The notes below the pieces were generated by a model. That model was not told the DNA's origin, ran no database searches, and worked only from the letters and a program-made list of their open reading frames with translations. From the NCBI GenBank assembly GCA_022530585.1, contig CP092821.1:6222-70221 (forward strand): a stretch of DNA of 64,000 nt, read 5' to 3'. Shown piece after piece: positions 26,300 through 27,389 of the stretch (positions are counted from its first letter, which is position 1; the number at the start of each line of letters is the position of its first letter). The stretch is from Candidatus Nealsonbacteria bacterium DGGOD1a (GTDB lineage: Bacteria; Patescibacteriota; Minisyncoccia; Minisyncoccales; UBA5738). The position numbers and the translations under genes were made by a program.

Positions 26300-27389
26300 A
26301 TGTTTGAGAAAATCTGTTCTTTTGAAAATTTACATTTGGCATATTTGAAAGCGCGCAAATGCAAGCGCTACAAAAAGGAGATTTTAAAATTTGGATTTGA
26401 TGCCGAAGCAAATTTGTTGAAATTAAAAGAACGGCTGGAAACTCAAACATATAAGCACGGCGGCTATCGCGAGTTTGTCGTCAATGATTCCAAAAAGAGA
26501 ATCATAAAAGCCGCTCCATTCGCCGACAGGGTGGTTCATCACGCGCTGTGCAACATCATTGAGCCGATTTTTGACAAGGCATTTATTTTTGACAGCTACG
26601 CCTGCCGCAAAGACAAGGGGACTCACAAGGCGATAAAACGCGTCAAAACATTTTTGCGATCATTGGCGTTTGCCGAGAGAGAGAGAGAGAGAGAGAGAGA
26701 GTAAAAATACGACCCGCGGAATCTATTGCTTGCAGTGCGACATTTCCAAGTATTTTGACAGCATAAACCACGAGATTTTGTTTGGAATTTTGCAGAAAAA
26801 AATTGCCGATAAAAAAGTTTTGCGGCTGATCCAAGAAATTATTGACAGCAACAATTTTGAAACCGGCAAGGGGATTCCCATCGGCAATCTGACCAGCCAG
26901 CTCTTTGCCAATGTGTATTTAAACGAACTTGACCAATTCGTGAAGCGGGGTTTAAAGCGCGGATATTATCTTCGCTATATGGATGATTTTCTGATTTTGG
27001 GAACCGATAAACGGGAATTATGGCAAGTAAAGGACAAAATCGCTGAATTTTTGAAAAACGGATTGGATTTGAATTTGCATCCCAAGAAAGCCGAGGTATT
27101 TCCGGCAAGAACTGGGATTGAATTTTTGGGATTTCGGATTTTCGCCGCTTACGCAGTTTTACGCCAAAGCACGCTAAAACGATTTGTCAAAAAAATGAAA
27201 GAAAAGAAAGGCGATGAAGCCGCCGCGGCAAAAGCGTTTGATTCGTTTCGCGCTTTTGCCGACAAATGCCGCTCTTGGCAAACTACGCAAAATCTTGAGG
27301 CGATATTTTTGCCCCGCCGCCACGAAGAGAAAATCATCAGCCATGTTAACGCCCAACTGCAAACTTTTTCAGAGGGTCTAACCCTCTGA
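26300..27389 (+). CDS. DGR reverse transcriptase, reading frame broken at (GA)13 (ORFs 26300-26704 and 26670-27389)
   Basis: N-terminal part: [28 protein letters not shown]-terminal part: [29 protein letters not shown] (DGR-specific SQ motif), [18 protein letters not shown]. Confidence 0.85.
26675..26701 (+). repeat. (GA)13 dinucleotide microsatellite inside the RT gene
   Basis: gagagagagagagagagagagagagag counted base by base. It encodes (ER)n and is followed immediately by TAA in the upstream frame. Confidence 0.95.

Follow-up and report, generated by a model that had tools for sequence, protein, structure and literature searches.

Introduction

In Helicobacter pylori, outer-membrane and lipopolysaccharide genes, e.g., oipA, undergo phase variation through dinucleotide CT/GA repeats and belong to the contingency loci. 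Repeats can also switch enzymes: phasevarions depend on repeat-containing mod methyltransferase genes, and repeat-switched mismatch-repair genes give rise to transient mutators. Known sites of programmed slippage and frameshifting, as in insertion sequence (IS) elements, dnaX, and prfB, are characterized by one fixed frame relationship, a defined slippery motif, and usually a stimulator. Here we describe a pure (GA)n tract of variable length inside the reverse transcriptase (RT) gene of a diversity-generating retroelement (DGR). It was detected in a stretch of 64,000 nt (referred to as the window) of the ultra-small Candidatus Nealsonbacteria bacterium DGGOD1a (assembly GCA_022530585.1, contig CP092821.1, positions 6,222 to 70,221), and is compared below with related RT genes.

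The regulation of DGRs is largely unknown, and neither a switch nor a regulator within the RT gene is described in the DGR surveys consulted. Rewriting a ligand-binding tip without control should come at a cost. We propose, with a probability of roughly 0.7, that the (GA)n tract is a slipped-strand contingency locus in the RT gene of a clade of DGRs from the candidate phyla radiation (CPR)/Patescibacteria and serves as a heritable random on/off switch of hypermutation.

Results

A (GA)13 tract separates the two parts of the RT gene

Two open reading frames (ORFs) of the window together encode the RT (Table 1). The upstream ORF is in frame 2 and the downstream ORF in frame 0, i.e., in the +1 frame, and the tract lies at their junction. 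Read in the upstream frame, the tract is directly followed by TAA, and the listed start of the downstream ORF is a TTG located 5 nt 5' of the tract. Therefore, the uninterrupted RT frame expected of a DGR is not present in the window, where the gene is split at the tract; gain of one GA unit or loss of two restores it. Indeed, rebuilding the gene in silico gave a single ORF of 363 aa with 14 units, 361 aa with 11, 365 aa with 17, and 359 aa with 8, and the gene was still broken with 12 or 15 units. Apart from the tract frame, no further lesion was found in this copy. A preliminary description of this DNA had claimed that the tract sets RT motifs 1 and 2 one unit out of frame with motifs 3 to 7, that it reads into TAA in the upstream frame, and that 14 or 11 units would fuse the halves into an RT of ~363 aa. 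All three claims were confirmed by the ORF frames and the rebuilt genes.

The tract is the only dinucleotide run of at least 5 units anywhere in the window, and in 100 dinucleotide-preserving shuffles the expectation for a (GA)6 word was 0.00. As in contingency loci, a perfect short-unit repeat beyond chance is thus present inside a gene. In every sense frame, (GA)n encodes alternating Glu and Arg and is free of stops. The repeat uses exclusively GAG and AGA, which account for 27% of the Glu and 12% of the Arg codons in this genome, respectively. Selection at the protein level for the (ER)n peptide was considered and is rejected because of this exclusive use of minority codons. Together with the purity of the repeat in RTs with as little as 52% protein identity, the codon choice suggests that the repeat is a feature of the DNA. 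An Rfam search of the window detected only six tRNAs, all distant from the locus, and did not match the tract to any known RNA.

The fused RT matches Pfam RVT_1 (residues 63-281; E = 3e-25) and the solved Bordetella DGR RT 8ub7 (residues 2-332; E = 4e-55). According to the alignment with 8ub7, the loop encoded by the tract is a 17-residue insertion relative to the Bordetella RT (bRT), directly preceding the motif that holds the first catalytic Asp. The in-frame homologue P0001 was modelled (mean predicted local distance difference test score, 75); in the model, a long helix (residues 107-132) runs on through the ER repeat, which lies at its end. This is compatible with length tolerance of the repeat but not decisive. 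The locus has the constituents that identify a DGR: a DGR-type RT, a template repeat (TR) and a variable repeat (VR) whose mismatches are confined to adenines of the TR, the accessory protein Avd, and a target protein with a C-terminal variable ligand-binding fold. To judge from these constituents, the DGR of the window appears complete, with the RT frame as its sole apparent defect. The whole window yielded no further VR that matches the TR.

The tract is conserved at one position in related RT genes

Metagenomes were scanned for (GA)5 placed 24-54 nt before the codons for CDISKYF (at least 50 contigs), and RT loci with at least 95% flank identity were assigned to one lineage. Altogether, at least 58 loci in at least 41 RT lineages carry a pure (GA)n tract at the same position, with n ranging from 5 to 30 (median, 14). 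After repair of the frame, the encoded RTs are down to 52% identical to each other at the protein level (median, 60%). A protein search with the repaired RT retrieved relatives with 68-95% identity and (ER)n in the same loop, in addition to a 244-aa fragment that begins inside the repeat; at the DNA level, these relatives have pure (GA)11, 14, 14, 15, and 16. A scan of genomes added Patescibacteria UBA6102 (11 units) and a metagenome-assembled genome (MAG) of the Minisyncoccales (12 units).

The RT relatives come from Patescibacteria genomes and MAGs, and several of them adjoin bAvd genes. Patescibacteria is the only phylum identified among the tract-bearing lineages, and the tract-plus-motif pattern had 0 matches in viral contigs. 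Counting GA units in related genomes had been suggested in the preliminary description, and the outcome matches the switch proposed there: the tract is conserved in position (at least 41 lineages) and varies in length. It had also considered that orthologous RTs might lack the tract while the window copy accumulates further disabling mutations. This was not observed: the orthologues carry the tract, and the window copy is free of other lesions.

Some contigs show additional arrangements. The 4.9-kb contig L003 harbors two tract-bearing RT genes (tracts at 1558-1586 and 4826-4856), the first with 14 units and in frame, the second with 15 units and out of frame; the contig ends within the second gene. 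In L005 (Patescibacteria UBA6102), a second RT remnant (7902-8922) is located beside an intact DGR RT. Its N-terminal 103 codons and a C-terminal piece of 72 codons remain, and a 123-aa ORF, which by eye resembles an Avd/23S-IVP four-helix bundle, has taken the place of the middle part with the tract position. L043 carries a (GA)13 tract (6621-6646, minus strand) at the 5' end of an ORF for a membrane-like protein of 137 aa directly 5' of the DGR target gene, and the RT of that DGR is devoid of a tract. In L027 (Velamenicoccus archaeovorus), a (TC)19 run lies ~5 kb from the RT.

Most tract-bearing RT genes are out of frame but otherwise intact

Frame states were determined for the 52 loci with both halves by two independent methods (longest open frame; tblastn of the N- and C-terminal parts), which agreed in 52/52 cases. 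Only 14 loci were in frame (ON), while 17 need a shift of +1 and 21 a shift of -1 (OFF; together 38/52, or 73%). This spread does not differ from a uniform one (chi-square p = 0.49). Three-frame translations inspected by eye showed that tracts with n = 5-9 are likewise out of frame. As a control, we used DGR RT relatives from genome assemblies. Both motifs were in one frame in 57/57 tract-less RTs; of the tract-bearing RTs from genome assemblies, 2/3 were not in one frame. The frameshift is thus tied to the tract.

Both halves of the gene are under purifying selection, with median ratios of nonsynonymous to synonymous substitution rates (dN/dS) of 0.15 for the N-terminal half and 0.20 for the C-terminal half (152-155 pairs). 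A change of one unit was sufficient to obtain an uninterrupted RT ORF in 41/41 loci with enough sequence. Furthermore, TR/VR mismatches are confined to adenines in OFF loci, too (window, 16/16; L002, 15/15; L093, 17/17; L099, 18/18; L117, 19/19). These features suggest that the RT gene is not decaying.

More than one tract length was found in 9/11 of the multi-locus lineages. ON and OFF alleles occur within one lineage, and in the lineage of L094, L102, and L114 all three states are represented. In-frame alleles have 6-25 units in the DNA scans, and a 4-unit remnant was found by protein search, which argues that the loop tolerates length changes. Extra lesions were detected in 2/38 OFF alleles, both with the shortest tracts: a nonsense mutation (GAA to TAA) in L097/L134 (n = 7), and an RT broken after ~66 codons in L133 (n = 6). 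L138 (P0004) is a collapsed in-frame remnant with 4 units. This pattern would fit a tract that is reversible as long as it is long, and a gene that becomes locked ON or OFF once the tract is short.

Tract length changes rapidly on identical backgrounds

We compared pairs of loci with 100% identical flanks (600-1000 nt). The unit numbers differed in 11/15 pairs (13/17, 16/17, 10/12, 15/9, 15/11, 24/19, 24/26, 19/26, 9/11, 11/9, and 12/10), and the agreement of the other 4/15 shows that the length calls are reproducible. The window itself belongs to such a pair: contig LQYC01000119.1 (L085) has 0 mismatches to it over 531 + 1614 nt (2145 nt), but it contains 17 units and encodes an intact RT of 365 aa. 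Similarly, the unit number (12 versus 10) is the only difference between L111 and L123 in 2611 nt. Across 10.3 kb, L094 (24 units) and L114 (26 units) are otherwise distinguished only by 5 single-nucleotide polymorphisms and one 1-nt indel. As in contingency loci, the unit number differs between identical or closely related genomes, and the length moves the gene between an intact and a truncated frame.

Between the ON allele L094 (24 units) and the OFF allele L102 (19 units), 3 kb of sequence differ only in the tract, at 12 positions in the VR, and at 7 others. All VR differences (12/12) are at TR adenines, and the other 7 are located just upstream of the VR (292-328). The tract and the VR region thus appear to change faster than the rest of these loci, both on the same time scale, and the DGRs are probably live on the time scale of tract change. 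Compared with the otherwise identical L002 (1601-1719), ~68 nt of the VR appear to be missing from L089 (in frame; ~1560-1650), which may reflect a real deletion or the assembly collapse of a heterogeneous VR.

The 13-unit count recurs in further assemblies

According to the genome paper, Ca. Nealsonbacteria DGGOD1a is an epibiont of Methanothrix in a benzene-degrading methanogenic consortium. The closed genome CP092821, a 1.16-Mb contig on which both RT parts are annotated, was obtained from hybrid Illumina/PacBio assemblies of two subcultures, with coverages of 278× and 113×, and was polished by read mapping (genome paper). Three more assemblies (L135, L136, and L137) are identical to window positions 23300-29704 (6405 nt), including the VR and the 13 units, so that a single VR is common to the four assemblies of the 13-unit population. 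Since a closed, polished genome and three further assemblies all have 13 units, the count is no accident of assembly, in disagreement with the artefact considered in the preliminary description. The genome paper does not mention the DGR, and no RT is listed in the proteomics supplements to the OR consortium paper.

Components of the DGR and neighboring genes

The coordinates of the RT gene, the tract, and the other DGR components are given in Table 1.

Table 1. Features of the DGR locus in the window
Feature	Position	Strand	Remark
DGR target gene, 4208 aa, C-terminal FGE-sulfatase/CLec-type domain bearing the VR	12684-25310	+	two inteins
Variable repeat (VR), 3' end of target gene	25193-25313	+	16/16 TR mismatches at TR adenines
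48-nt palindrome element, same as at 26238-26285	25372-25419
Accessory gene avd (bAvd-like four-helix bundle)	25456-25806	+	PF22296, E = 4e-28
Template repeat (TR)	25922-26042	+
48-nt double palindrome (TTTTCAGAGGGTCTAACCCTCTGA + complement)	26238-26285	.	just 5' of RT start
N-terminal RT part, 134 aa, motifs 1-2 (UMX47943.1)	26300-26704	+	stop TAA 26702-26704 abuts tract
C-terminal RT part, 239 aa, motifs 3-7 including YMDD (UMX47944.1)	26670-27389	+
(GA)13 + final G	26675-26701 (GA units 26675-26700)	+	inside RT gene
Half copy of palindrome	27366-27389		overlaps RT stop

The avd-TR and RT modules lie between GC-rich palindromes (TTTTCAGAGGGTCTAACCCTCTGA and relatives) that resemble repetitive extragenic palindromic (REP) elements, and the half copy provides the last codons of the RT gene (FSEGLTL and stop). 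Related palindromes are also present at 12475-12518 and 36702-36740 of the window. In L001, L003, L005, and L016, the RT is flanked by the same palindromes. An ORF of 252 aa without a Pfam match (30854-31612) shows ~70% DNA identity to an ORF adjoining the RT in L001, L002, L003, L005, and L016, and its homologue in L001 has a faint match to Y1_Tnp (IS200-like). The 252-aa ORF may encode a REP-associated transposase linked to the palindromes.

In the target protein, two intein splicing domains are located at residues ~915-1545, and one intein has an NYN nuclease-like domain inserted (residues 980-1129). The target gene also contains a 30-nt tandem repeat (22277-22557; 9.4 copies, 90% alike) that encodes STNNTGVYGS-like units. 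Directly 3' of the RT gene, a ribbon-helix-helix antitoxin and a HigB/RelE-like toxin are encoded as a pair (27533-28122), followed by an AAA_14/DUF4143 ATPase (28242-29495). A second giant protein of 1363 aa (31706-35797) has six Laminin_G_3 domains and clostridial-toxin receptor-binding-like domains, and after it comes a 103-nt tandem repeat with 2.3 copies (35766-36000).

Discussion

A slipped-strand switch as the favored explanation

We favor the explanation that the (GA)n tract is a contingency locus gating the DGR. Replication slippage would add or remove GA units far faster than point mutations arise. The resulting (ER)n peptide would be part of an insertion that is specific to the lineage and immediately precedes the strand bearing the first catalytic Asp; given this insertion site and a (Glu-Arg)n repeat that is stop-free in all sense frames, in-frame alleles of any length should be tolerated. 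Two of three lengths would part motifs 1-2 from motifs 3-7, so that no full-length RT is made and OFF alleles presumably have no RT activity. Each cell line would then inherit an ON or OFF state of mutagenic retrohoming into the tip of the giant surface protein, and this state would be revertible. The consensus state of the window would be OFF, and gain of one unit or loss of two would turn it ON. On this model, alleles would switch frequently and reversibly within a population, and switching may be adaptive. A slipped-strand on/off switch of the DGR RT had already been put forward in the preliminary description, and, at the level of sequence comparison, it gains support from the conserved pure tract, the length differences between loci with identical flanks, and the coexisting in-frame and out-of-frame alleles.

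Several observations weigh against such a switch. In-frame alleles do not exceed one third (13/49 distinct alleles; binomial p = 0.36), and this even use of the frames means that the consensus state shows no selection for ON. The lack of an in-frame excess is also consistent with RNA-level rescue or a tolerated neutral microsatellite. Some intact OFF alleles are short (n = 5 in L104/L128; n = 8-9 in others), and slippage at the DNA level should be slow there. A length mixture within one population is deduced only from differences between assemblies, and contig LQYC01000119.1 may come from outside the DGG cultures. Finally, tracts of more than ~27 units exceed common assembly k-mers, which makes their exact lengths uncertain.

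Alternative explanations

Rescue at the RNA level is unlikely, although several observations are in line with it. In this case, RNA polymerase or the ribosome would slip by one GA unit (2 nt), and a certain amount of full-length RT would come from every allele. The frame of the DNA would be close to neutral, with the tract as an expression attenuator instead of a binary switch. The frames are indeed used as evenly as if the DNA frame were unselected, and both halves are under purifying selection despite 73% of the loci being out of frame. Moreover, after a 2-nt shift on (GA)n, the RNA-DNA hybrid or both tRNAs can re-pair perfectly, and identical codons are restored. In Escherichia coli, approximately half of the 2-nt transcription deletions were found in dinucleotide repeats, but G-rich dinucleotides, including GA and AG, were less prone to deletion (PMC5574713). 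Our literature searches revealed no efficient slippage on a dinucleotide repeat used for decoding in bacteria, and a conserved flanking stimulator is missing, the 3' flanks differing by lineage (GTAAAAA, GCAAAAT, GGAAAAA, CGGCGCC, and others). The lesions in the two OFF alleles with short tracts fit any length-dependent reversal and do not separate a DNA-based from an RNA-based model. Even if slippage occurs at the RNA level, a length change in the DNA would strongly alter the RT dosage.

A further possibility is a two-layer rheostat, in which a heritable DNA length is combined with stochastic RNA slippage, and each length would set its own low level of full-length RT. We regard the rheostat as similarly doubtful; if true, it would be the first case in which slippage on a dinucleotide repeat is used for decoding in bacteria. 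A programmed frameshift in one direction was also considered as the principal explanation and was discarded: both out-of-frame phases occur within single lineages, which makes a directional frameshift unlikely.

No better are the chances of a tolerated, nonadaptive microsatellite, i.e., a self-perpetuating hotspot of mutation in a loop where an (ER)n peptide of any length is accepted. The gene product would be needed so rarely that its frequent loss is cheap, and switchability would not be selected. It would account for the missing excess of in-frame alleles and for the wide length range (4-30 units). Furthermore, tract-less RTs (P0006, 61-64% identity) nest among the tract-bearing ones, and remnants exist (P0004/L138, 4 units), suggesting that the tract was repeatedly lost. 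However, a neutral microsatellite would hardly be expected to persist uninterrupted at one homologous position in at least 41 lineages, down to 52% identity, between halves under strong purifying selection. In addition, it would have to be the only such repeat in 64 kb and be spelled in rare codons.

It is highly improbable that the RT is a decaying pseudogene or a two-piece enzyme made from separately translated halves. The annotation of the gene as two proteins (UMX47943.1 and UMX47944.1) and the TTG codon before the tract could be taken as signs of a split gene. Nevertheless, a second lesion was present in 0/41 testable loci, both halves have the low dN/dS of 0.15-0.20, and an in-frame allele exists on an identical background (L085). 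Since both out-of-frame phases are found within single lineages, the break point of an N-terminal fragment would also vary by allele. Decay had been listed in the preliminary description as an alternative, together with assembly error, and both are disfavored by the 41/41 loci without a second lesion, the dN/dS values, and the 13 units in four assemblies.

Least probable is an assembly or sequencing artefact, with a true tract in frame and wrong out-of-frame calls: PCR stutter in dinucleotide runs, contigs ending within the tract (L098 and L109), and tracts beyond the assembly k-mer, which cannot be sized, would allow for it, but it is largely refuted by the hybrid polished genome (278×, 113×) and the three further assemblies with 13 units, the out-of-frame tracts of only 5-9 units, the identical counts in four pairs with identical flanks, and the 57/57 tract-less RTs that are in frame in the same kinds of assemblies.

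Implications

If the tract is a switch, a small fraction of cells would diversify the target while the rest keep a working variant, which would amount to bet-hedging on mutagenesis itself. Since ~70% of the tract-bearing RTs look split in assemblies, surveys restricted to intact RT ORFs are likely to count too few DGRs in the CPR. The system is unusually testable: Ca. Nealsonbacteria DGGOD1a has been maintained for decades in laboratory enrichment cultures, its genome is closed, short and long reads are public, and proteomics data exist.

Comparison with known systems

The locus shares with the phage BPP-1 bRT-Avd system of Bordetella a homologous RT, Avd, adenine-only TR/VR differences, and a C-terminal variable domain of the CLec/FGE-sulfatase type, but bRT has no insertion at the position of the tract (a 17-residue gap). 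In the DGR literature consulted, no repeat or frameshift in a DGR RT is described. As in programmed recoding, protein halves in different frames are joined at a repetitive, slippery sequence. Instead of one fixed, conserved frame relationship, however, all three relationships were found (14 loci in frame, 17 at +1, 21 at -1), even within a lineage, and the sequence is a long dinucleotide run of variable length.

The similarity to the contingency loci of H. pylori is closer: a perfect short-unit repeat in a coding region, a unit number that varies between near-identical genomes (here known from length differences between assemblies), two of three lengths that truncate the protein, and the coexistence of ON and OFF alleles. 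In contrast to H. pylori, the hosts are uncultured CPR bacteria and not host-adapted pathogens, and the tracts reach up to 30 units. Moreover, the gated gene would encode a polymerase of targeted hypermutation and not a surface antigen or modification enzyme, so that the generation of variation, and not one phenotype, would be controlled.

In this respect, the locus resembles phasevarions and transient mutators, in which a repeat toggles an enzyme with many downstream outcomes, in the mutator case the supply of mutations. Unlike in mismatch-repair mutators, mutagenesis would not be genome-wide but confined to the ~120-nt VR of one gene, and it would be templated, through adenine-specific errors of the RT. 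Phase variation and DGRs are each well known, and our literature searches found no publication that links repeat-mediated phase variation with DGRs. What appears to be new, as far as the sequences tell, is that a contingency locus would carry, as the gene it controls, the enzyme of a targeted hypermutation system.

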